NCBI GenBank assembly: GCA_049303575.1
Contig: JBAQNH010000002.1
Location: 247,932 to 311,931, forward strand
DNA length: 64,000 nucleotides
Direction of reading: 5' to 3'
Source: Microgenomates group bacterium
GTDB taxonomy: Bacteria > Patescibacteriota > Microgenomatia > UBA1400 > MFAQ01
The position numbers and the translations under genes are program-made. Positions 9,716-56,700 of this stretch are shown here, one piece after another (within the stretch, counting starts at the first letter, position 1; the number at the start of each line of letters is the position of its first letter). The notes beneath the pieces were generated by a model that ran no database searches, was not told where the DNA came from, and saw nothing but the letters and a program-made list of their open reading frames with translations.

Positions 9716-11554
9716 ATGACCATTAACGACATCAGGAGCAAATTCCTCTCTTTTATGGAAAAAAGAGGACATGCCATTATCCCTTCTGCATCACTAGTCC
9801 CCGAAGGTGACGCCACCACTCTTTTTACTTCTGCTGGTATGCAACCAATGATGCCCTATCTCCTTGGTCAAAAACATCCTTTAGGTACCCGTCTTGTTGA
9901 TTCTCAAAAATGTTTTCGTTCCGGAGATATTGATGAAATAGGAGACAATCGTCACACTACTTTTTTTGAAATGCTTGGTAACTGGTCACTGGGAGATTAC
10001 TTCAAAGACAAACAGCTTGAATGGTTTTTTACCTTTTTGACAAACAAAAACGAAGGTTTGGGTTTGGACCCTAAAAGACTCTTCGTCACCGTTTTTGAAG
10101 GAGGCTCTGGTGTAGGTAAAGATGTAGAAGCTGTCTCCATTTGGCAAGATCTCTTTAAAAAAGTAGGTGTTAGCGCCAAGGAAGGCGAACGTATTTTTGC
10201 TTATCCCGCCAACAAAAACTGGTGGTCCAGATCAGGAACTCCTGAAAATATGCCTGCCGGAGAACCAGGTGGTCCGGACTCCGAGGTCTTTTTTGATTTT
10301 GGTGAAAATCTAAAACTCCATGAAAAATCTAGTTTTAAAAAACAAAAATGTCACCCCAACTGTGACTGCGGTCGTTTTATGGAGATCGGCAACTCTGTTT
10401 TTATGCAGTATCTTAAAAAAGAGGATGGTACTCTTGAAGAACTTCCTCATAAAAACATCGACTTTGGTGGTGGTCTTACCCGTCTGGAGGCTGCCGTCAA
10501 CTCCGACCCGGATATGTTCAGGATCTCAAGTCTCCTCCCTTTGATTTCGGAAATTGAAAAAATTTCTGGAAAATCTTACTCTGATGTTGAAAATCAACCT
10601 CTCATGCGCGTGATTGCCGATCATCTCACCGCCGCTACCTTTCTTATTAAAGATGGTGTTTTCCCAACCAACAAAGCGCAAGGATATGTTCTTAGAAGGA
10701 TACTTCGTCGTGCCGCTGTCAAACTATATTTTCTGACTTCTGATTTCGAAACTCTCGAAAGACTTGCTGAACTTAGTTTCCTGGTCGCTCAGATTTATTC
10801 TCCTCTTTATTTCGATATCAAAAGAGACACACCCGTTCTTCACGAGACCATAAAGACCGAAATTAAAAGATTTAGTGTTTCCCTGGACAAAGGTATTAAA
10901 GAACTCGAAAAAAATCCCAAAATTGATGGTAAGGCCGCCTTTGACCTTTATCAAAATTATGGTTTCCCGCTGGAAATTACCGCTGAAATACTATCCAGAA
11001 TGAATATAAAAATCGACACGAAACAATTTGAAGCTGAATTTGAAAAACACAAACAACTTTCTCGTTCCGCTTCCGCCGGCATGTTTACCGGAGGCCTTGC
11101 TGACCACTCCAAAACCGTCACGGCGTACCACACGGCCACCCATTTGCTTCACGCTGCTCTCCGTCAAATCTTAGGTACTCACGTTGGTCAAAAAGGATCC
11201 AATATCACCTCGGAAAGACTCAGATTTGATTTTTCTCATCCGGAAAAACTCACGGATAATGAGATCAAATTAACTGAAGAATTAATCAATAGAGCAATCT
11301 CCACTAAACTTCCGGTTACTAGGGAAGAGATGAAAAAAGATGACGCTATTGCACAGGGAGCCATGGCTTTCTTTGGCCAAAAATATCCTGACATGGTTAG
11401 TGTTTACACGATTGGCGACAAAGAAAATACCTTTTCCAAGGAAATCTGCGGTGGACCCCATGTGACTAATACCCAAGAACTTGCTAAGATAAAGATAGTC
11501 AAACAAGAGTCACTGGGCGTTGGGACACGTCGCCTTTACTTACAGTTTGTTTGA
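9716..11554 (+). CDS. alaS: alanyl-tRNA synthetase, short form lacking the C-terminal C-Ala domain
   Basis: 612 aa; class II catalytic core (FTSAGMQP, FFEMLGNWSLGDY), editing domain HTATHLLH and CGGPHV motifs. Confidence 0.9.
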   Translation: MTINDIRSKFLSFMEKRGHAIIPSASLVPEGDATTLFTSAGMQPMMPYLLGQKHPLGTRLVDSQKCFRSGDIDEIGDNRHTTFFEMLGNWSLGDYFKDKQLEWFFTFLTNKNEGLGLDPKRLFVTVFEGGSGVGKDVEAVSIWQDLFKKVGVSAKEGERIFAYPANKNWWSRSGTPENMPAGEPGGPDSEVFFDFGENLKLHEKSSFKKQKCHPNCDCGRFMEIGNSVFMQYLKKEDGTLEELPHKNIDFGGGLTRLEAAVNSDPDMFRISSLLPLISEIEKISGKSYSDVENQPLMRVIADHLTAATFLIKDGVFPTNKAQGYVLRRILRRAAVKLYFLTSDFETLERLAELSFLVAQIYSPLYFDIKRDTPVLHETIKTEIKRFSVSLDKGIKELEKNPKIDGKAAFDLYQNYGFPLEITAEILSRMNIKIDTKQFEAEFEKHKQLSRSASAGMFTGGLADHSKTVTAYHTATHLLHAALRQILGTHVGQKGSNITSERLRFDFSHPEKLTDNEIKLTEELINRAISTKLPVTREEMKKDDAIAQGAMAFFGQKYPDMVSVYTIGDKENTFSKEICGGPHVTNTQELAKIKIVKQESLGVGTRRLYLQFV

Positions 11555-13728
11555 CGACTTCTGTCATGAACTTAGTAAATCTATTTGGAAACAAGTCAAA
11601 AACCAAAGAACCGGATTATTTTTTGGCCATCGAGATTCATGAATCTCTCATTAAAACCGCTCTCTGGGAAGTTGCCGAGGGAACTCCCTCTGTCATTAAA
11701 GTAGGATCATTTGAGTCATGGGCTGATGAAGACTCTCTTATAAATGGAGTTGATGCCTCACTCGAGCAAGCCGTCAAAGACATTGATTCCGAACCCCGAA
11801 AAGTTATTTTTGGACTTCCTGATTCCTGGATTGATGACGGCAAAGTTCACCCTTCAAAAACCAAACTAATAAGTCGTTTAGTTAAAGAGTTAGGACTTGA
11901 TCCCATTGGTATGGTTCCCATAAACTCCGCCATTGCTCATTACATGAAAAATCTTGAAGGTATTCCTCCCACGGCCATTCTTCTTGAAATCTATACTACC
12001 AAAGTTGTTGTCTCCGTTATTGAAAAGGGTGAAATAACCTCATCGGAAGAAACTGCCAGGTCAGATGACCTAGCCCAAGATGTTGAGGAAGGACTAACCG
12101 TCATTGGCAAGGAAAAGCTACCAGCTCGTTTTATCCTCACCAACGGCGGAGCACTTGAGGAAGAAGAACAACGCATCACCTCTCATCCTTGGCAGGAAAG
12201 GCTTCCTTTTCAACATATGCCCAAGGTTGAAGCTCTACCCGTAGACTTTAGTATTCGAGCCATTGCTCTCACTGGAGGTACGGAAGCTGTCCAATATCTT
12301 ACTGGAAAGACAAGCGAAGAGCCGCAGGAAGAAAGTTTTCCTCATGAAGAAACTAATATTTATGTTCCGGAAGTCTCACCGACATCCATTGACGAGCTCG
12401 GTTTTTCGTACGAAGAGGCCGATGCTCCCTCATCGGTAGAAAAAGCTCCCCCCGAAACATACGTCGAAACATCCACCGAAATCTCGGAACCGGAATATGC
12501 TCTTAGTCCGGAAGAACCATCCTTTACTCCAAAACCAAAAAATAAACTCGCTTTTTCTCTACCAACTTTTCCAAAATTTAGACTTCCCGATATAAAAGTA
12601 AATAAACTTTCTTGGTTATATTTACTAATCCTACCTTTGTTATTGATTTTGGGTTATGTTCTTTATCTATTTACCGGACAGGCAATTATTTCCATTGCCT
12701 TCAATCCTCAAAAAATCACTGGTCAGTACACCATCTCCATTGCCGAGAGTTCTGTTTCGGCCACACCCACTTTATTGTCCACAAAAAAAACGGTTTCTGG
12801 CTCTGCCAAAGAACAAATTCCTACCACTGGAGACGCGACTGTAGGGGACAAAGCTTCCGGAGCAATTACCATTGCCAACAAATCAACTGCCCCCATTGTT
12901 ATTAAAGCCGGCACCAGCATTCTCTCCGAAAATAGCAAATATGCGTATACCATAAACGATGCAGTGACCGTCGCTTCCAAGAGTGCCGATGTCGGCATTG
13001 TTCAGGGAGCATATGGAATTGCGTCAGGGGTAAAGGTGACAGCAGTCAAGATTGGTGCTGACTACAACCTTCCCAAAAACTCAAATTTCTCCGTTGATAA
13101 CTACTCAAAAAACACCATCATTGCCGTTGCTGATGCAGACTTCTCCGGTGGAACATCCAGAGCAGTTCGTGCAGTTTCCAAAGCCGATCAAGACAAACTT
13201 CTTTTACTGGCTACCGAGAAAATAAAGGCGCAAATTCAAGCCTCAACTCAATCACAAACTCCCGGATTTAAATCTCTGGCACTTTCCGAATTTGCCTTCA
13301 CCAAAAAAACTTTTGATAAGAATGTTGGCGAAGAAGCCACGGTTTTAAATTTGGATCTTGAAGGGTCGGTTGATACTCTCGTTTATTCCGAGGACAATCT
13401 TTATCAACTAATTGCGGTTCAACTCGCCCCCCAAATACCCGCTGGCTCAGAAATTTTTCCTGGAAACACTGCCATCGTACTCGAAGAACCAATTAAAAAA
13501 GACGGCTACTACGAAGCAAAAGTAAACGTGGAGACCAGTCTCTTCCCCAAGATTGATGAAGAAAAATTAAAAGCAGCTATCGGGGGAAAATCTGTCACCG
13601 GAATTCGCCCCTACTTCTCTACTATTCAAGGGTTTAGTCAACTTAGGATTAAAATTGCCCCCAAAATTCCCATTTTCACCAACTTCCTTCCCCTGAAAAA
13701 CATCAAGTTTGAACTAGTGGAGGACTAA
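11551..13728 (+). CDS. hypothetical membrane protein: N-terminal PilM/FtsA-like actin-fold domain, acidic linker, single TM helix, large extracellular domain
   Basis: 725 aa; residues ~20-190 resemble the PilM/FtsA SHS2 and 1A/2A region; TM LSWLYLLILPLLLILGYVLYLF at ~aa 350-375. Confidence 0.5.
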   Translation: MTTSVMNLVNLFGNKSKTKEPDYFLAIEIHESLIKTALWEVAEGTPSVIKVGSFESWADEDSLINGVDASLEQAVKDIDSEPRKVIFGLPDSWIDDGKVHPSKTKLISRLVKELGLDPIGMVPINSAIAHYMKNLEGIPPTAILLEIYTTKVVVSVIEKGEITSSEETARSDDLAQDVEEGLTVIGKEKLPARFILTNGGALEEEEQRITSHPWQERLPFQHMPKVEALPVDFSIRAIALTGGTEAVQYLTGKTSEEPQEESFPHEETNIYVPEVSPTSIDELGFSYEEADAPSSVEKAPPETYVETSTEISEPEYALSPEEPSFTPKPKNKLAFSLPTFPKFRLPDIKVNKLSWLYLLILPLLLILGYVLYLFTGQAIISIAFNPQKITGQYTISIAESSVSATPTLLSTKKTVSGSAKEQIPTTGDATVGDKASGAITIANKSTAPIVIKAGTSILSENSKYAYTINDAVTVASKSADVGIVQGAYGIASGVKVTAVKIGADYNLPKNSNFSVDNYSKNTIIAVADADFSGGTSRAVRAVSKADQDKLLLLATEKIKAQIQASTQSQTPGFKSLALSEFAFTKKTFDKNVGEEATVLNLDLEGSVDTLVYSEDNLYQLIAVQLAPQIPAGSEIFPGNTAIVLEEPIKKDGYYEAKVNVETSLFPKIDEEKLKAAIGGKSVTGIRPYFSTIQGFSQLRIKIAPKIPIFTNFLPLKNIKFELVED

Positions 13729-13729
13729 C

Positions 13730-14482
13730 ATGCTCTACGGATACAAAAAGGCTACGGCGAAAAATCCGCATCCTGGGCGAAAAATCCCCATCTACCTAAA
13801 AACCGTACCAACATTAATTTCTGCCCTTGGCCTTGGAATCCTTGGTGCCGTAGCTTATCCCGTGGTAAGTTATCAGTTAAAAGACTTCAAGCCGTTTAGT
13901 CTGGTAAATACTGGCCTTCTCTCCCCGGTCTATTACGAATCAAAAGCAAGCTCGGATCGTGAACCAAAGGTCCTGAGTGACCTGGACTATACCAAAGCCA
14001 GTAGTTGGTTCCCCGGAGACACTCAAAATAATCCCTTTACTGCCCCCAAGATGGACGATGGCAACATTCCCGAATTTTATTCCATCTCTGTTCCTTCCCT
14101 TGGACTTGCCGATGTTCAGGTAAGTTTATTTGACGAAGATCTGACGAAACACCTGGTCCAGTATCCTCAAACCGCACTTCCTGGGGAACTCGGTTCGCCT
14201 GTAATTTTTGGTCACTCTACCCTCCCACAATTTTATAATCCCTTAAAATACACCACCATTTTTTCCAATTTACCCAAAATAAAACTTGGTTCGGACGTCT
14301 TTGTCAAATACAAAGACGCAGAATATACTTATCGAGTTACCAGTATTATTGAGGTAAAACCATCGGAGCTCTGGGTACTAAAACAAAACTACAACGCTAA
14401 AACTATTAAATTAATTACTTGCGTTCCTCCTGGAACCACTCTTCGTCGTCTAGTGGTGGAAGCAACTCTCATTGAAAATTAA
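13730..14482 (+). CDS. sortase family transpeptidase
   Basis: N-terminal TM anchor, catalytic His (IFGHSTL), TLxTC motif (KLITCVPPG), Arg (RRLVV). Confidence 0.7.
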   Translation: MLYGYKKATAKNPHPGRKIPIYLKTVPTLISALGLGILGAVAYPVVSYQLKDFKPFSLVNTGLLSPVYYESKASSDREPKVLSDLDYTKASSWFPGDTQNNPFTAPKMDDGNIPEFYSISVPSLGLADVQVSLFDEDLTKHLVQYPQTALPGELGSPVIFGHSTLPQFYNPLKYTTIFSNLPKIKLGSDVFVKYKDAEYTYRVTSIIEVKPSELWVLKQNYNAKTIKLITCVPPGTTLRRLVVEATLIEN

Positions 14483-50159: not shown

Positions 50160-51076
50160 GCAATCGTCTGAACGAGTCCTTTTTCCAAAGGAATCAAAGG
50201 TTCCCAGGATAGTTTTTCTTTTGCCAAAGTAATATCCGGTTTTCGGATCTTTGGGTCATCTTTAGGAATATCTTCAAAAACAATCTTGCTTTTTGACTCG
50301 GGAATCATTTTAAGGACAATCTCAGCCAACTCTTTAATCGTAAATTCCCCGGGATTTCCGATATTTACCGGCCCGATAAATCCAAGATTATTTTCCATCA
50401 TTTTCAACATGCCGCTAATTAGATCATCTACATACTGGAAGCTTCTTGTTTGTGAACCATCGCCATAGATCGTGATGTCCTGATTGGAAAGTGCTTGCAC
50501 AATAAAGTTTGAAACCACCCTTCCATCATTTGGATCCATGTTTGGACCATAGGTGTTAAAAATTCTGATTATTCTTACGGGAAGTTCAAATTTTCGAAAA
50601 TAATCGACAATCAATGTCTCTGCCGCTCTTTTCCCTTCGTCATAGCAAGATCGAATTCCAACCGGGTTTACATTACCCCAGTAACTCTCTTTTTGAGGGT
50701 GTTCTAGTGGGTCTCCGTAGACTTCTGACGTCGATGTTTGCAGTAGTCGGCAATTGTTATTTTTTCTAGCCAAATCCAGCATATTCATCACCCCGATCAC
50801 AGAAGTTTTCCAGGTAAAGATAGGGTCTTTTTGATATGCGGGAGGGGAAGCTGGACAAGCTAAGTTATAAATTCTATCTAATCCGGTAATTTCCAAGGGA
50901 TTTACGATATCATGTTCAATTACTGAAAACTTCTCCGACTCCAAGAGTTTCTCAATATTCTTTTTTCTTCCGGTATAAAAATTATCTACACAGATAACCT
51001 CATTACCTTCATCAATAAGCCTTTTACAAAGGTGTGAACCAATAAATCCCGCCCCTCCTGTTACTAGTATTTTCAT
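50135..51076 (-). CDS. UDP-glucuronate decarboxylase (UDP-xylose synthase), NAD-dependent SDR
   Basis: [14 protein letters not shown] Rossmann motif; strong UXS-like similarity throughout. Confidence 0.8.
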
Positions 51077-51133
51077 TATGTAATTCTACCCCAGCTTGAC
51101 AACCTTTCTCTTCCGCCTTATAGATTAATCAGT

Positions 51134-52303
51134 ATGAAAAAAATTATTCAACTCTTTTCCTCGTTGGTTCCCGCCTTTTTATTCATTTCTATTTTTGCTT
51201 CCTCCGCCGGAGCAGTTTTTTTTCAAACCGGTGACAGTCTTGTAATACCCAAAGAAAAAATAATCAATGAAACAGCCGTCATTTCCGGTTCTTCGCTTAC
51301 CATTAATTCAAATATCAACGGAGACCTTTTGTGTGCTGGTCAAAATGTTGTAATTAATGGGAACATCAAAGGTGATGTTATTTGTTTTGGTCAAAATATT
51401 AAAATAAACGGCACTGTTGATGGCAATGTTCGTGCTGCAGGCCAGACAATCGAGATCTTTGGCCAAGTTACCAGGAATCTTTCAATTGCCTCACAACAAC
51501 TGGTTCTTGATTCAAAGTCGCAAATAAAAGGTGATGTTTTTTTTGGAGTTCAGAATGTCGAACTGGGTGGTGTCATGGGACGTGACCTAGCCGGAGCCGG
51601 TGACTCAATCACTATTACAGGGTCTCTTTTAAGAAACGCCGTCGTTACGGGAACAAAGCTGTCCATAATTGAAACTGGAAAAATTGGCGGCAACCTTGAC
51701 TACTATATGGAAAAAACAGCCACGGCTTCAATTGGTGAAAAAACTGTCAAAGGAAATATACTAAGACACGATATTGTTACTCCCTCAAAACCTGCATTAG
51801 ACAAAAAAATGGCCGGCATTGCCAACACAGCCATTATCCTCAAAACCATATTTGGAATCCTCTCCTTTGGTCTTCTTGGTTTGGCTATTGTTTTCTTCGA
51901 CAAAAAAGACACCAAAAAGAAAATTTCCGCAATCATCAATAAACCCCTGGTCAGCGGACTTATTGGTTTAGCGATCTTAATCACTGCCCCCTTAGTCTTC
52001 ATTATTATTCTGGCTACGGTTATTGGTATGCCTTTGGCCTTTGTTGTTATGTTTGTTTATATCATTGCTCTAATTACCGCCTCACTCTATCCTTCAGCCA
52101 TATACGGAAAACTCTTTTTTGAAAAAGTGCTTCAAAAAACAAACACCTCTCTTTATTCTCAAATGTTTATGGGAGTAATCCTACTCGGGCTTGTTTCAAT
52201 TATTCCGGTTATTGGTTGGATAATTGCTTTTGTATCATTCTGCATGGGACTTGGAGCCTCTCTCGTTTCAATGTTCCCCGAAAAAGCCGAAACTAAAAAT
52301 TAA
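51134..52303 (+). CDS. membrane-anchored beta-helix repeat protein (bactofilin / polymer-forming-like repeats) with C-terminal multi-TM domain
   Basis: signal/TM N-terminus, repeated INGxIKGDV / GQNVxINGxV units, 4 predicted C-terminal TM helices. Confidence 0.4.
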   Translation: MKKIIQLFSSLVPAFLFISIFASSAGAVFFQTGDSLVIPKEKIINETAVISGSSLTINSNINGDLLCAGQNVVINGNIKGDVICFGQNIKINGTVDGNVRAAGQTIEIFGQVTRNLSIASQQLVLDSKSQIKGDVFFGVQNVELGGVMGRDLAGAGDSITITGSLLRNAVVTGTKLSIIETGKIGGNLDYYMEKTATASIGEKTVKGNILRHDIVTPSKPALDKKMAGIANTAIILKTIFGILSFGLLGLAIVFFDKKDTKKKISAIINKPLVSGLIGLAILITAPLVFIIILATVIGMPLAFVVMFVYIIALITASLYPSAIYGKLFFEKVLQKTNTSLYSQMFMGVILLGLVSIIPVIGWIIAFVSFCMGLGASLVSMFPEKAETKN

Positions 52304-52309
52304 TATCGC

Positions 52310-52690
52310 TCAATAACCCCTTTTTCCTCTGGGTCTTAACATGTTCCTACGTTGCTTTCGACGTTTTTCCTTCTTTCTCTTCGGAAGTTTTTCGTTATGA
52401 ATGAAATTTGGATCTTCCACTGTCAGATAATACTCAAGGCTAACATAAGCACCCTTTAGCTGCTTTCTTACTAAAAGAAGTCTCGCCTCTGTCGTCCGAT
52501 CTTTATCTTTGTGACATGGCTCGGAAAGATGTTGAATATTTTCCTTCGCATTTATTTGCTCATAACTCCACCCCCAGAGCTTCCCAATACATTGGGGAGT
52601 AAAGTGATCTACCGTGTTTCCAACACCGTCACATGACTCGTTATGAACAGGAGCTTCACACGGAGGGTAACAATTAACCTCTTTATTCAT
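52310..52690 (-). CDS. HNH endonuclease with basic C-terminal tail
   Basis: CxxxC ... DHFTPQC ... N ... EPCHKDKD arrangement; KRKKEKRRKQRR tail. Confidence 0.55.
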   Translation of the reverse strand: MNKEVNCYPPCEAPVHNESCDGVGNTVDHFTPQCIGKLWGWSYEQINAKENIQHLSEPCHKDKDRTTEARLLLVRKQLKGAYVSLEYYLTVEDPNFIHNEKLPKRKKEKRRKQRRNMLRPRGKRGY

Positions 52691-52763
52691 TTAGAGAAAA
52701 TATATCACCACAAACTCAAATTACTAGAGGCAAAATATGATACCGGAAGTACAGATCCTTTGT

Positions 52764-53375
52764 TTACATTGACACGCTGTCGGCAAAAACCACCAGACGT
52801 TTGCTATAACTTTTTTTGTTCAAATCCCAAACCCCATCACAAGTAACCAGATTTAAATGAACACCGTCATTCAGATCAAATACTTCTTTTGCATAATCAG
52901 GATTTAAAATACGTTTTTCTCGAACAATAAAAACAAACGACTCTCCCTTATCATCCTCAACATATATCAAACTATTTTCTTTTAATTTATACAAATCGAC
53001 AAACACCCCTGCTTCATCATTCTTTCCATCTAAATGTCCGGCAATAACGGCACTTCCGATCTCCCCGGGGATTGGTCCAATTTTAAACCATCCGGCTTCA
53101 AGAATACTGTTCGGAACCTCCATTTCCCCTTCTGAATTAACGCCAACTTGCTGAATAGCGGTATCGACGTTGATTGCTGGTATTATTAGGCGTACCGGAA
53201 TTCCCGGTCTCTTACTCTGTTCTTCGACCCCCAAAACTTTGATTTTCTCGTTTGGTAAAGTTTGTCGATCATGAACCTGAATTTTGTATAGTCCAATCGA
53301 AGATATTAAAAACAACACAAAAGAAAATGTCATTAACACAACACGTTCTCTTAGTCTTGTCCAGTGAATAAACAT
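52764..53375 (-). CDS. sortase family transpeptidase (second copy)
   Basis: N-terminal TM helix, IAGH, LNLVTC (TLxTC), RLVV motifs. Confidence 0.7.
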   Translation of the reverse strand: MFIHWTRLRERVVLMTFSFVLFLISSIGLYKIQVHDRQTLPNEKIKVLGVEEQSKRPGIPVRLIIPAINVDTAIQQVGVNSEGEMEVPNSILEAGWFKIGPIPGEIGSAVIAGHLDGKNDEAGVFVDLYKLKENSLIYVEDDKGESFVFIVREKRILNPDYAKEVFDLNDGVHLNLVTCDGVWDLNKKSYSKRLVVFADSVSM

Positions 53376-53403
53376 ACTATTACTTTCAACAATCTCATTT
53401 CTA

Positions 53404-54579
53404 TCAGACTCTCTTTCGCTCTCCCCTGGAAATGAAGTAAATGCCCAAACCTAAAAGCGTTCCCACTAGAACACTCCAATAATTATTATTACTCTCTCCA
53501 CCAGTCCCCGCATTAGGTAATCTTGGTCCTCCCACAAGAACTGCGGCTTCAAAAGTTCCAATCTGACACTCATTTCTGGCGGCCACTTGCACCCAGATTG
53601 GTTGGTTTGCCGGGAGGGCATTAATCGTCGTTGAAAATCCCGTCACATCCACGTTGTAAATCAAATTATCCTTTGTCGTTCCATAACGGACAATAAAATC
53701 ATTCGTTCCAGAGTAAGGTCCCCAGCTAATATAAATACTATCCGCATCCACTCTTCTTGAATCAATTATGTTTGGTGCAATAACTCCGAGATCTATAGTT
53801 GGACAAAATGGATTTGGAGCGCTATTGTCACCGATTGATGATCCAACTGAAGATGTCGTTGTGGTTGAAGCGGTACAGGTTGGTCCACTTATTGTATTGC
53901 CGTCCAGTGTCACTGTACCTGCATCTTGGACTAAGAGACGACCATTCAGAGTCGCACCTGTATTCATAGCATTTACGCCGTTAAGAGCCAATATATTTCC
54001 TATAAACGAAGTGGTTGTGCCAAGGGTTACTGAGCTACCAACTCTCCACCATACATTGCAAGGGTCACCACCGGTAACAGACGAACCGGACGAGGTGATC
54101 AGCGTCGATACTGTTTTAAAAATCCAAACCCCCGACCCTGCAAGAGTTAGATTTCCGGAAAGTGAGAAACTACTTGTTGAACAATAAACGCCTGGACTAA
54201 GTGGAGAAATCAAGGTTAAATCTTGAGCCCCATATGTTTGATCACATGTTTGGTCTAATGTACCGAAAGCTGTGAGATTGTCTGCTTGTGCCGCTATTGC
54301 GCTTGCATCATTGTTGTGCAGATAAACTGCATTATTTCCACCGGCTATTCCCGGAGGGAAGCCTGTTAATGACGTTCCTGAGCTGACTCCAACATTTCCG
54401 GTTGTTGTTGTCGAACCGGTATTCGTCACCGCCTGTCCTCCAAGAACGGAATAGCTTGATGCACCCACTAGTATTGGTGAGGTTGCTGCATACACCGGTG
54501 TCGCCAAGAAAAAAAATAAAGCAGGGATAAAAATCTGCACCAAACTCAACCCAAAAGAAAAAACTCTACCTTTTTTCAT
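53404..54579 (-). CDS. secreted surface protein: signal peptide, DUF3494 ice-binding-like domain, FN3-like domain, C-terminal LPNAG sorting signal
   Basis: signal peptide ending VYA; TGxT/GxS-rich DUF3494-like N-terminal region (VTGFPPGI); C-terminus LPNAG + hydrophobic stretch + RGERKRV. Confidence 0.6.
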   Translation of the reverse strand: MKKGRVFSFGLSLVQIFIPALFFFLATPVYAATSPILVGASSYSVLGGQAVTNTGSTTTTGNVGVSSGTSLTGFPPGIAGGNNAVYLHNNDASAIAAQADNLTAFGTLDQTCDQTYGAQDLTLISPLSPGVYCSTSSFSLSGNLTLAGSGVWIFKTVSTLITSSGSSVTGGDPCNVWWRVGSSVTLGTTTSFIGNILALNGVNAMNTGATLNGRLLVQDAGTVTLDGNTISGPTCTASTTTTSSVGSSIGDNSAPNPFCPTIDLGVIAPNIIDSRRVDADSIYISWGPYSGTNDFIVRYGTTKDNLIYNVDVTGFSTTINALPANQPIWVQVAARNECQIGTFEAAVLVGGPRLPNAGTGGESNNNYWSVLVGTLLGLGIYFISRGERKRV

Positions 54580-54685
54580 AATTTTTTATACTAATACTAC
54601 ATCCAATGTATCCAAAAATTATTAAAAAGTCAAACTTAAGTTGTAAAGAAGCTTACAAGTTATTTATCCTCAGTCTAGTCCCAAA

Positions 54686-54759
54686 TGGTCGGGGTGTGGA
54701 GAGTTGAACTCCAGCCGTGCGGCCCCCAGCCGCAAATACTACCGTTATACTACACCCCG
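54686..54759 (-). tRNA. tRNA-Pro (anticodon GGG)
   Basis: manual fold: acceptor CGGGGTG/CACCCCG, anticodon stem TGCGG/CCGCA, loop CTGGGGG, T-arm TGGAG-TTCAACT-CTCCA, encoded CCA. Confidence 0.8.
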
Positions 54760-54831
54760 AATGTGAAAATTATATCATGTAGAAGCCAAAACAGGCTTGA
54801 AGTTTCGGTAAAACTTTGGTTTAATTAATAT

Positions 54832-55611
54832 ATGACCCGTATTTTAATAATTTGTTCCTTCTGTAAGGGAAAAATATATCGAAATCCGAGCAGTATAAAT
54901 AGTAAACATAATTTTTGTAATCATCACTGTTCAGCTTCGTTTACCAACAGAAAAAGAACTACAAAACTATCGGTTTTAAGAAAAACTCGGGTAATTCTAT
55001 CTCCGCTTTGCAAGCAGTTTGGCTGTTCCAATCACATTGGTCTAGAAAATAAAATATTTTGTTCATATCAATGTAAAAAAGCCTTCTATCAAAGCGGACA
55101 CTCACAATTCAAAGAAGAAAGTATAAAAAGGGTCAGTTCCTTCATGAAAGAATATGGCAGATTACCTGTTAAACGAGAGTTTTCTCAAGGATACAAAAGA
55201 ATTCTTCACGTCTTTGGTTCCTGGAATAATCTGATCAAATCTGCGGGTTTCGAACCCAATCCGGTATTATTTTCTCGGAAATATATCGCCAACGACGGAC
55301 ACGGATGTGACTCTTTATCTGAAAAAATTATTGATGATTGGATGTTTGCACGGAAGATTCCACACCTGATAAAAGAAAAATATCCTTGGAATAACGGCAT
55401 GACAGCTGATTTTAAAGTTGGTGAATATTGGATTGAATTATTTGGACTTGTTGGTCAATTGAAGTCATATGATTGTTTAATGAAAATAAAACTTCAAAAA
55501 GTCAAAGAACACAATTTAAACTTAATTAGTTTATTTTTAAGTGATTTGTTTCCACATAATCATCTTCAAGATAAATTAGACATCTTGCGAAAACGGTCAA
55601 CTTATCTATAA
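54832..55611 (+). CDS. hypothetical Cys-rich (zinc-ribbon) protein, strongly AT-rich gene
   Basis: several CxxC/CxxxC pairs in the N-terminal 90 aa; composition far below the window average. Confidence 0.4.
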   Translation: MTRILIICSFCKGKIYRNPSSINSKHNFCNHHCSASFTNRKRTTKLSVLRKTRVILSPLCKQFGCSNHIGLENKIFCSYQCKKAFYQSGHSQFKEESIKRVSSFMKEYGRLPVKREFSQGYKRILHVFGSWNNLIKSAGFEPNPVLFSRKYIANDGHGCDSLSEKIIDDWMFARKIPHLIKEKYPWNNGMTADFKVGEYWIELFGLVGQLKSYDCLMKIKLQKVKEHNLNLISLFLSDLFPHNHLQDKLDILRKRSTYL

Positions 55612-55644
55612 TGACTAGTAGATTAGCAAAAAACCCGAAAGTTT

Positions 55645-56700
55645 ATGCCCAAAAAAGCAAAAGAAGAGAAAGCCAAAGTTGTCCAAGTAAGTAACAATGA
55701 CGACCGTTTAACTGCTGTCAAAATTGCTATGCAACAAATCACCAAGCAGTATGGTGAAGGCGCCATCATGCGTATGGGGTCAGACAAAATCAACGAAAAA
55801 ATCCCCGTCATTTCTTCCGGTTCAATCAGTCTTGATCTTGCTCTCGGTGTTGGTGGCTTTCCTAAAGGCAGAATTATCGAAATCTACGGTCCAGAAGCCT
55901 CGGGTAAAACCACACTTGCCCTCCACGTCATATCCGAAGCCCAAAAAGCGGGTGGAGTCGCTGCCTTCATCGACGCCGAACACGCTGTCGACCCAACCAG
56001 AGCCAAGTCTATTGGCGTTGACCTGGATAGTCTCTTACTTTCCCAGCCGGACAACGGTGAACAAGCTCTTGAAATAGCCGAAACCCTCATTCGTTCAGGT
56101 GGTGTTGATGTTGTCGTCATTGACTCAGTCGCCGCCCTTGTCCCCAAAGCCGAAATTGAAGGCGAGATGGGGGATGCTTCTATGGGCATGCAAGCCAGAC
56201 TCATGAGTCAAGCCCTAAGAAAGATTACCGGCGCCATTTCCAAGAGCAAATGTATCGTCATTTTTACCAATCAACTTCGCGATAAAATCGGTGTCATGTT
56301 TGGTAACCCGGAAGTGACCACCGGAGGAAAAGCTCTCAAATTTTATGCTTCGATTCGTATTGACATGCGTAAAATTGGCAACATCCAAGAAGGTGAAGAA
56401 ATTGTTGGTTCTCGTCACCGTGCCAAAATCGTCAAAAATAAAGTGGCCTCTCCTTTCAGATCAGCGGAATTCGACATTCTCAATATTGGTGGCATTAGTA
56501 AGCTGGGGGATCTTTTAGACACTGCCATCGCTTACGAAATTATCGAAAAGGCCGGTGCTTTCCTGAAATACAATGGCGAAACCATTGCCCAGGGAAGAGA
56601 GGCTGCCAAAGCCATTCTGGCCGAAAAACCGGAAATGATCGAAAAAATCAAGAAAGAAGTCGTTGCTAAAGTCAATGCCGGAGCAACTATCACCAAGTGA
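55645..56700 (+). CDS. recA: recombinase RecA
   Basis: GPEASGKTT Walker A, full RecA core. Confidence 0.97.

Follow-up and report, generated by a model that had tools for sequence, protein, structure and literature searches.

A 64-kb window of a Microgenomates-group (Patescibacteria) metagenome-assembled genome, the whole stretch of DNA analysed here, raises the question of whether a sortase gene and the gene that precedes it, encoding a putative surface protein with an ice-binding fold and the sorting pentapeptide LPNAG, form a unit for anchoring that protein to the cell wall, and of whether the alanine of the pentapeptide marks a specificity of its own. On the minus strand the list of open reading frames (ORFs) and ARAGORN give the order tRNA-Pro(GGG), an ORF of 391 amino acid residues (aa) for the putative substrate, a 203-aa ORF for the sortase and a 126-aa ORF, with recA and a 259-aa HNH_repeat-domain gene on one side and a gene for a bactofilin-domain membrane protein on the other. 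A first-pass annotation made from the sequence had placed a secreted 391-aa protein, a sortase, an HNH-type ORF and tRNA-Pro at this locus, and all four are present where it put them. The reading favoured here, with a probability of roughly 0.8, is that the middle two genes constitute a dedicated sortase-substrate operon for the sortase-mediated wall anchoring of an ice-binding-fold surface protein. The features on which this reading draws are as follows.

53404..54579, minus strand: putative sortase-substrate gene, 391 aa (ORF, Pfam PF11999, AlphaFold2 and Foldseek)
54487..54579, minus strand: predicted signal peptide, aa 1-31, MKKGRVF...TPVYA (translation, homolog alignment, model helix)
53890..54447, minus strand: DUF3494 / IBP-1 beta-solenoid head, aa 45-230 (Pfam, model, Foldseek)
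53530..53796, minus strand: FN3-like beta-sandwich stalk, aa ~262-350 (Foldseek; Pfam fn3 sub-threshold)
53404..53520, minus strand: C-terminal sorting signal, through the stop codon (translation, family position counts)
53506-53520, minus strand: LPNAG pentapeptide (translation)
52764..53375, minus strand: class-F-like sortase gene, 203 aa, with N-terminal membrane anchor (Pfam PF04203, NCBIfam)
53034-53036, 52839-52841 and 52797-52799, minus strand: codons of the sortase triad His114, Cys179 and Arg193, respectively (checked by translation and alignment)

The sortase gene starts 28 bp beyond the stop codon of the substrate gene. The four proteins of the locus are 100% identical to GenBank entries MFZ3069071.1-MFZ3069074.1, in which the 391-aa protein (MFZ3069073.1) is named 'ice-binding family protein', the 203-aa protein (MFZ3069072.1) is named 'class F sortase', and MFZ3069071.1 and MFZ3069074.1 are hypothetical. 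Every component is of a known kind, the genes already carry names in GenBank, and the pairing is a useful but modest observation.

Recurrence of the gene pair

The adjacent sortase had been proposed in the first-pass annotation as the likely cognate enzyme of the 391-aa protein, a proposal that was borne out by a gene order recurring in many genomes and contexts. Eighty loci were scanned, one genome per species, with the ORFs of the fetched loci called mechanically and homologs identified by phmmer (E<=1e-3); the samples are best-scoring matches and not random draws, and several organism names in the record titles are evidently wrong. Among the 57 DUF3494 proteins that end in an xPx[T/A/S]G signal and have sufficient downstream sequence, 54 have a sortase of this type on the same strand no more than 1.5 kb downstream, and in 48 the distance is at most 200 bp, whereas DUF3494 proteins that lack the signal have a sortase downstream in only 9 of 21 cases (Fisher p=2e-6). 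The reverse search, of a sortase profile against metagenome contigs, yielded 67 loci with sufficient upstream sequence, and a DUF3494 protein is encoded directly upstream of the sortase relative in 56 of them; in 8 of the remaining 11 it is found one gene further up, and in the other 3 a different LPNTG protein precedes the sortase. One database protein (P0027) is a fusion of DUF3494 substrate and sortase.

This pairing, which is a direct observation, is kept in order by close relatives within the same recA-to-bactofilin context and is also found in unrelated genomic contexts (L005, L006 and L089). Its hosts comprise Microgenomates, Saccharibacteria, Gracilibacteria, Peribacteria, Dojkabacteria, Uhrbacteria and many Chloroflexota. 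Since loci of Patescibacteria and Chloroflexota repeat this gene order in unrelated contexts, the interpretation of the sortase and the DUF3494-FN3 protein as a cognate pair is strongly supported by comparative genomics. The case is also largely ordinary, being that of a two-gene unit that is common across two bacterial phyla. A literature search found no paper linking DUF3494 with sortase. In other dedicated operons, such as those of SrtB with IsdC and of the class GN 'marine' sortase with its target, one sortase gene likewise adjoins one substrate gene, the signal is a family-specific version, and the pairing is conserved across many genomes; the present pairs differ from both in the class of the sortase, the fold of the substrate (DUF3494) and the host phyla (Patescibacteria and Chloroflexota). 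Since little is known of how Patescibacteria build their surface, the pairing is of interest for naming a candidate sortase substrate and a candidate surface adhesin.

Some loci depart from the form of one substrate and one sortase that is seen in the window. Tandem DUF3494 genes occur in L035 and L039, and tandem sortase genes in L089, L146, L149, L156, L159, L161 and L166, where the second sortase is ~270-330 aa long; in L146, L149, L161 and L166 it ends in a C-terminal hydrophobic helix, an arrangement reminiscent of pilus loci.

The putative substrate protein and its sortase

The domain content of the 391-aa protein was observed directly. Residues 45-230 match Pfam Ice_binding/DUF3494 (PF11999; E=1.3e-37, 129.9 bits, cut-off 28.7), and an AlphaFold2 model built on 35 homologs (mean pLDDT 78.8) consists of a signal-peptide helix (aa 3-24) and a beta-solenoid (aa 43-231, pLDDT >90) with a flanking helix (aa 92-107), which a disordered Ser/Thr linker joins to a beta-sandwich (aa 270-349, pLDDT 76-87), followed by a C-terminal helix (aa 366-386). 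The top Foldseek matches in the PDB are crystal structures of ice-binding proteins, of which 7bwy and 6eio match the solenoid with E~1e-14 and TM-scores of 0.80-0.87 (7bwy: E=1.7e-14, TM-score 0.87, 38% identity). The C-terminal sandwich matches ~20 FN3 domains (E~1e-4, TM-score 0.7-0.8) and is superposed by Foldseek on those of neogenin, BOC and CDO (E 1.2e-4 to 3e-4) with a root-mean-square deviation of 2.1-2.6 A across ~90 residues; in isolation it reaches 14 bits (E=0.062) on Pfam fn3 (PF00041), under the cut-off of 25, over profile positions 3-76 of 84. The FN3-like assignment is one backed by the predicted fold and not by a sequence threshold. With this qualification, the signal peptide, the DUF3494 region and the FN3-like domain of the first-pass annotation all held, the second on Pfam evidence and the third on a fold match. 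The FN3-like domain is missing from homologs of ~280-300 aa, such as those of Saccharibacteria.

The 391-aa protein resembles type 1 ice-binding proteins in having the same beta-solenoid with a flanking helix, and given its 38% identity to a real ice-binding protein, of fungal origin, it is possible that the head binds ice. It differs from such proteins in that its close relatives are known from metagenomes of groundwater and sediment rather than from ice; its score on the NCBIfam equivalog IBP_CFB is 67 bits, the cut-off being 400. DUF3494 domains have also been described as substrate-binding (PMC12337378), and Pfam Ice_binding is listed as one of the adhesive heads of fibrillar adhesins (PMC8286594), from which the 391-aa protein differs in having only one stalk domain.

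The substrate gene is a mosaic. Its solenoid part (window positions 53870-54470) has a synonymous divergence (dS) of 0.63 from L087, which at 86% identity is the nearest relative beyond the window's own 90% cluster, and of 1.74 from L004, a more distant relative (78% identity), while the signal peptide, the FN3 domain, the sorting signal and the sortase are nearer to L004 (dS 0.05-0.34) than to L087 (dS 0.53-0.90). For the flanking recA and bactofilin-like genes dS is 0.43-0.48, and the ratio of nonsynonymous to synonymous divergence (dN/dS) is <0.3 in all segments compared. Because the solenoid is nearer to L087 and the rest of the gene with the sortase is nearer to L004, these distances suggest recombination that swaps the exposed head domain among related lineages.

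The signal peptide ends with VYA and is followed by A; residues A31, A32, T33, S34 and P35 are invariant or nearly so in the 35 homologs, and cleavage is predicted before the conserved ATSP. The near-invariance of A-T-S-P at the mature N-terminus in Patescibacteria bears on another possible role for the sortase, which is that of a polymerase joining DUF3494-FN3 copies into a surface fibre, either in the manner of class C enzymes or head to tail via the mature N-terminus. Pilus loci, too, have a dedicated sortase adjoining a single substrate, and some relatives of the window have tandem DUF3494 genes or tandem sortases, one of them with a C-terminal membrane helix. Polymerisation is nevertheless very improbable here: the conserved lysine that serves as the nucleophile of the pilin motif in class C systems has no invariant counterpart in the 35 aligned homologs, and the window encodes one substrate and one sortase, the latter with an N-terminal anchor only. 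The head-to-tail version was rejected on the ground that ATSP is not at the predicted mature N-terminus in Chloroflexota homologs. Attachment of single substrate molecules to the wall by a dedicated sortase is the preferred reading.

The sortase has an N-terminal membrane anchor and matches Pfam Sortase (PF04203; E=1e-21, 77.4 bits, cut-off 26.6). Its catalytic residues, His114, Cys179 and Arg193, are plainly present, as the first-pass annotation had stated; the cysteine motif that it had given as TLxTC reads LNLVTC and is not a strict TLxTC. Among 49 linked sortases His114 and Cys179 are invariant, and the window enzyme shares Arg193 with every Patescibacteria member. In 15 DUF3494-adjacent sortases from records titled Chloroflexota lineages (L027, L031, L033, L046, L049-L051, L059-L061, L064, L065, L070, L076 and L079) a histidine is aligned with the catalytic Arg193, possibly by a local misalignment; these sortases have F-D-H-H or F-D-R-H and then x-V-V-Y/F-A-T in place of Y-S-K-R-L-V-V-F-A-D, and most of them have no arginine at the Arg193 column or the preceding one.

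On the NCBIfam class F model (NF033748) the sortase scores 110.5 bits, with every other class at <=25 (the next best at 24.7 bits), and ten other DUF3494-linked sortases score 75-125 bits, all under the curated cut-off of 166. Because class F is the best class by a wide margin, yet the score is below the curated cut-off, the enzyme is called class-F-like. The sole characterised class F enzyme, that of Propionibacterium acnes, recognises LPXTG (PMC8225981). Unlike this housekeeping sortase, the window sortase is paired with one substrate family.

A second sortase is encoded in the window (13730-14482, plus strand, 250 aa), directly after a 725-aa membrane protein (region 11551-14482) that has a weak Baseplate_J-like match and is without a C-terminal sorting signal; no evident substrate for this second sortase was seen within the window. 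The first-pass annotation had looked to a comparison of the sortases at 13730 and 52764. Their alignment spans only 49 residues, at 33% identity, and they belong to unrelated classes, the best classes for the second sortase being C, D or E, and the comparison was uninformative on the motif.

Alanine in the sorting signal

The C-terminus reads LPNAG-TGGESNNNYW-SVLVGTLLGLGIYFIS-RGERKRV, that is, a pentapeptide, a polar spacer, a hydrophobic helix and a basic tail, and translation confirmed the tripartite PRLPNAG, helix and RGERKRV of the first-pass annotation. Window and Gram-positive LPXTG sorting are alike in the layout of these elements, with alanine in the window where LPXTG has threonine, and in having a membrane-anchored cysteine transpeptidase with a His-Cys-Arg triad; the window system is unlike it in its Patescibacteria host, in having a dedicated sortase beside a single substrate and not a housekeeping class A enzyme, and in the longer conserved spacer before the helix that the DUF3494 family signal contains. 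Signal conservation was observed directly in 198 non-redundant C-terminal tails drawn from homologs P0001-P0120 and L005-L169, in which the five positions of the pentapeptide are L in 84%, P in 100%, N in 72%, T in 89% (A in 9%, S in 1%) and G in 100%; the refuting case named in the first-pass annotation, a plain membrane anchor whose pentapeptide is not conserved in homologs, did not hold.

What did not survive is the view of LPNAG as an unusual and distinctive motif. The family consensus is LPNTG, which is the form found in L087, and at position 4 the codon of the window differs from that of L087 by one transition (GCG vs ACG). The more distant relative L004 shares LPNAG with the window, and the alanine variants (LPNAG, LPSAG, LPAAG, LPRAG and MPNAG) are scattered in Microgenomates and Saccharibacteria, in proteins with or without FN3. 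The nearest sortase of most alanine-type pairs belongs to a threonine-type pair, and the two types interleave without forming a separate clade. Because most alanine-type sortases are nearest to threonine-type ones, at least five independent switches are implied. With ~7-9 alanine cases there was no column-wise test worth reporting for sortase residues that track alanine versus threonine. There is a precedent in staphylococci, whose LPXAG proteins have been counted as sortase substrates or detected on the surface (PMC3436756, PMC2629846, PMC7137321); alanine at position 4, as in SasD and SasF of S. aureus, is a minority variant in both systems. LPNAG would accordingly seem, from codon and family comparisons, to be a variant that the family tolerates, one nucleotide away from its LPNTG and with no separate specificity. 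As a recurrent minority variant it adds little in itself, and its main use would be as a natural test of alanine tolerance at the cleavage position; GGPRLPNAGTGGE and GGPGLPNTGTGGG are named as candidate sortase substrate peptides for the question of LPNAG versus LPNTG.

If the replacement of threonine by alanine had inactivated the signal, the protein would escape cleavage, its C-terminal helix would keep it in the membrane as a plain anchor, and the sortase would be idle or act on other substrates. Besides the preference of the family for threonine, such a loss is favoured by residues +1 to +3 after the pentapeptide, which are TGG in the window and F/L-A/G-P in the family, and by the lack of a Pfam match to the LPXTG anchor: PF00746 (Gram_pos_anchor, cut-off 20 bits) has no match at E<=0.1 in the 391-aa protein. 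Two homologs do pass its cut-off, P0070 with 20.0 bits and P0105 with 25.7 bits, which speaks for the sorting signal of the family. Inactivation is unlikely all the same. Between the window and L004 the signal has dS 0.29 and dN/dS 0.24 and the sortase has dN/dS 0.19, which is to say that LPNAG, the transmembrane helix, the basic tail and the sortase have been kept under purifying selection in two lineages (dS ~0.2-0.3). Alanine variants arose repeatedly, always with retention of the sortase, and staphylococcal LPXAG proteins are surface-displayed (PMC3436756, PMC7137321). Because of this purifying selection, the recurrence among threonine-type sortases and the staphylococcal surface proteins, the alanine variant looks functional.

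The spacer that follows the pentapeptide in the family is (F/L)-(A/G)-P-x-x-N-N-x-P-W, with the proline in 72% of tails and the two asparagines in 48% and 40%; a tryptophan is found at tail positions 11-20, counted from the leucine of the pentapeptide, in 139 of the 198. It is common to Patescibacteria and Chloroflexota (for example, LPDTGGAPIRNxxxPW) and is only partly retained in the window. On these counts the spacer appears more distinctive of the family than LPNAG, and it may be a recognition element for the sortase clade. It is possible, if rather doubtful, that the pairs represent a so far undescribed phylum-spanning system, in which DUF3494 surface proteins have, through the extended signal LPNTG-(F/L)-(A/G)-P-x-x-N-N-x-P-W, a sortase clade of their own that is related to class F. 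If so, the DUF3494 proteins would be the first natural substrate family for class-F-type sortases, and the DUF3494 head would be indicated as a main wall-anchored adhesin of Patescibacteria, possibly for host cells rather than ice.

In the proposed mechanism of anchoring, which follows what is established for sortases, the 391-aa precursor would be exported via Sec and its signal peptide removed after VYA, and the C-terminal hydrophobic helix and RGERKRV tail would hold it in the membrane. Cys179 of the membrane-anchored sortase would then attack the Ala357-Gly358 bond of LPNAG (a Thr-Gly bond in most relatives), and the acyl-enzyme would be resolved by an amine of a peptidoglycan precursor, so that the ice-binding-fold head, carried on an FN3-like stalk, would end up covalently joined to the wall. 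The presence of a cell wall is indicated by a window gene for a YceG/MltG-type peptidoglycan enzyme.

Several considerations weigh against this account. The acceptor in Patescibacteria peptidoglycan is a presumed one, and the activity of the sortase clade is predicted from its genes; as late as 2026 the physiological roles of class F sortases were termed unknown (PMC13251363). Threonine at position 4 is strongly preferred, and alanine may lower or abolish cleavage. The signal of the window is also without the proline at +3 after the glycine that 72% of the family have, and the tail of the 391-aa protein is under the LPXTG-anchor thresholds of both Pfam and NCBIfam. Finally, the search for further substrates covered 64 kb of the genome, and among the window ORFs of >=60 aa it found no other with LPxxG, a transmembrane helix and a basic tail.

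Flanking genes

Two further features complete the minus-strand series.

52310..52690, minus strand: putative HNH-superfamily gene, 126 aa, with poly-basic tail (PHROG, remote relatives)
54686..54759, minus strand: tRNA-Pro(GGG), co-oriented with the substrate gene and directly upstream of it (ARAGORN)

The tRNA gene is the sole one detected in the window by ARAGORN, and the first-pass annotation had taken it for the edge of the locus. In the three closest relatives checked (L004, L087 and L090) the tRNA gene immediately precedes the substrate gene, and in L089 it is at a greater distance upstream. A search of positions 51000 to 55700 showed no att-like direct repeat of the tRNA sequence, and there is no integrase or recombinase among the neighbouring genes. 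Because of the synteny in relatives and the lack of such a repeat and of an integrase, the tRNA gene is best regarded, on comparative grounds, as a conserved neighbour and not as an island boundary. An origin of the segment from tRNA-Pro to the HNH gene as a mobile island, which would have imported sortase, substrate and nuclease together at the tRNA, has some points in its favour, namely the tRNA at one end, HNH-type genes on both sides of the pair, a GC content of 0.39-0.40 here compared with ~0.43-0.45 elsewhere, and the recombination in the beta-solenoid segment. It is extremely improbable even so, since in addition to the missing repeat and integrase, relatives down to 61% protein identity keep the series of recA, tRNA-Pro, substrate, sortase and bactofilin-like gene, and the low-GC stretch extends over housekeeping neighbours.

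The 126-aa protein had been called an HNH endonuclease, and the call is sustained by indirect evidence. The protein has no direct match in Pfam or NCBIfam even at E<=10, and its close family is small (12 clusters); 13 of 14 family members match PHROG HNH families weakly (E 0.003-0.07). When 1.84 billion representatives were searched with a profile, 120 relatives were obtained, and Pfam HNH (PF01844) is matched by 25 of the 109 that were scanned (best E=1e-9); in these 109 the residues C11, C20, D28, H29, N51, H60, K63 and D64 are >=90% conserved. The poly-basic tail is present, and the gene is under purifying selection (dN/dS 0.10-0.16). Membership of the 126-aa protein in the HNH superfamily is supported indirectly by these remote relatives. 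Two other routes to the assignment were rejected: a profile search against PDB sequences gave chance-level matches only, and in the structural comparison the model had pLDDT 58.7 and the Foldseek matches to McrA and Gme HNH were insignificant (E 0.9-5). An HNH gene follows the sortase gene only in close relatives and in L035, a Collierbacteria genome; in another relative other genes are found there. From this distribution, the HNH gene appears to be a lineage-specific neighbour outside the sorting unit.

The 259-aa gene between tRNA-Pro and recA (54832-55611, plus strand) has a product whose N-terminus is rich in cysteine and which matches the homing endonuclease associated repeat (PF18780, E=5e-9). 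A 289-aa homolog is found in L087 and L088, and none in L001-L004, in which recA abuts the tRNA region; the gene is probably a variably present one of the selfish endonuclease type. The HNH and HNH_repeat genes would both be neighbours that resemble homing endonucleases, vary in their presence and take no part in sorting.

A promoter and terminator scan gave a site count not above that of shuffled sequence; the best promoter-like site (54647-54618, 10/12 matches) is between the tRNA and the substrate gene. On the other side of the locus, the 389-aa protein encoded at 51134-52303 (plus strand) combines a bactofilin-like repeat region, encoded by 51-nt direct repeats (51302-51562), with a signal or anchor sequence and with a C-terminus of several membrane helices, which is DUF8173 in relatives. 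Within the lineage its gene is a conserved neighbour of the substrate-sortase pair.

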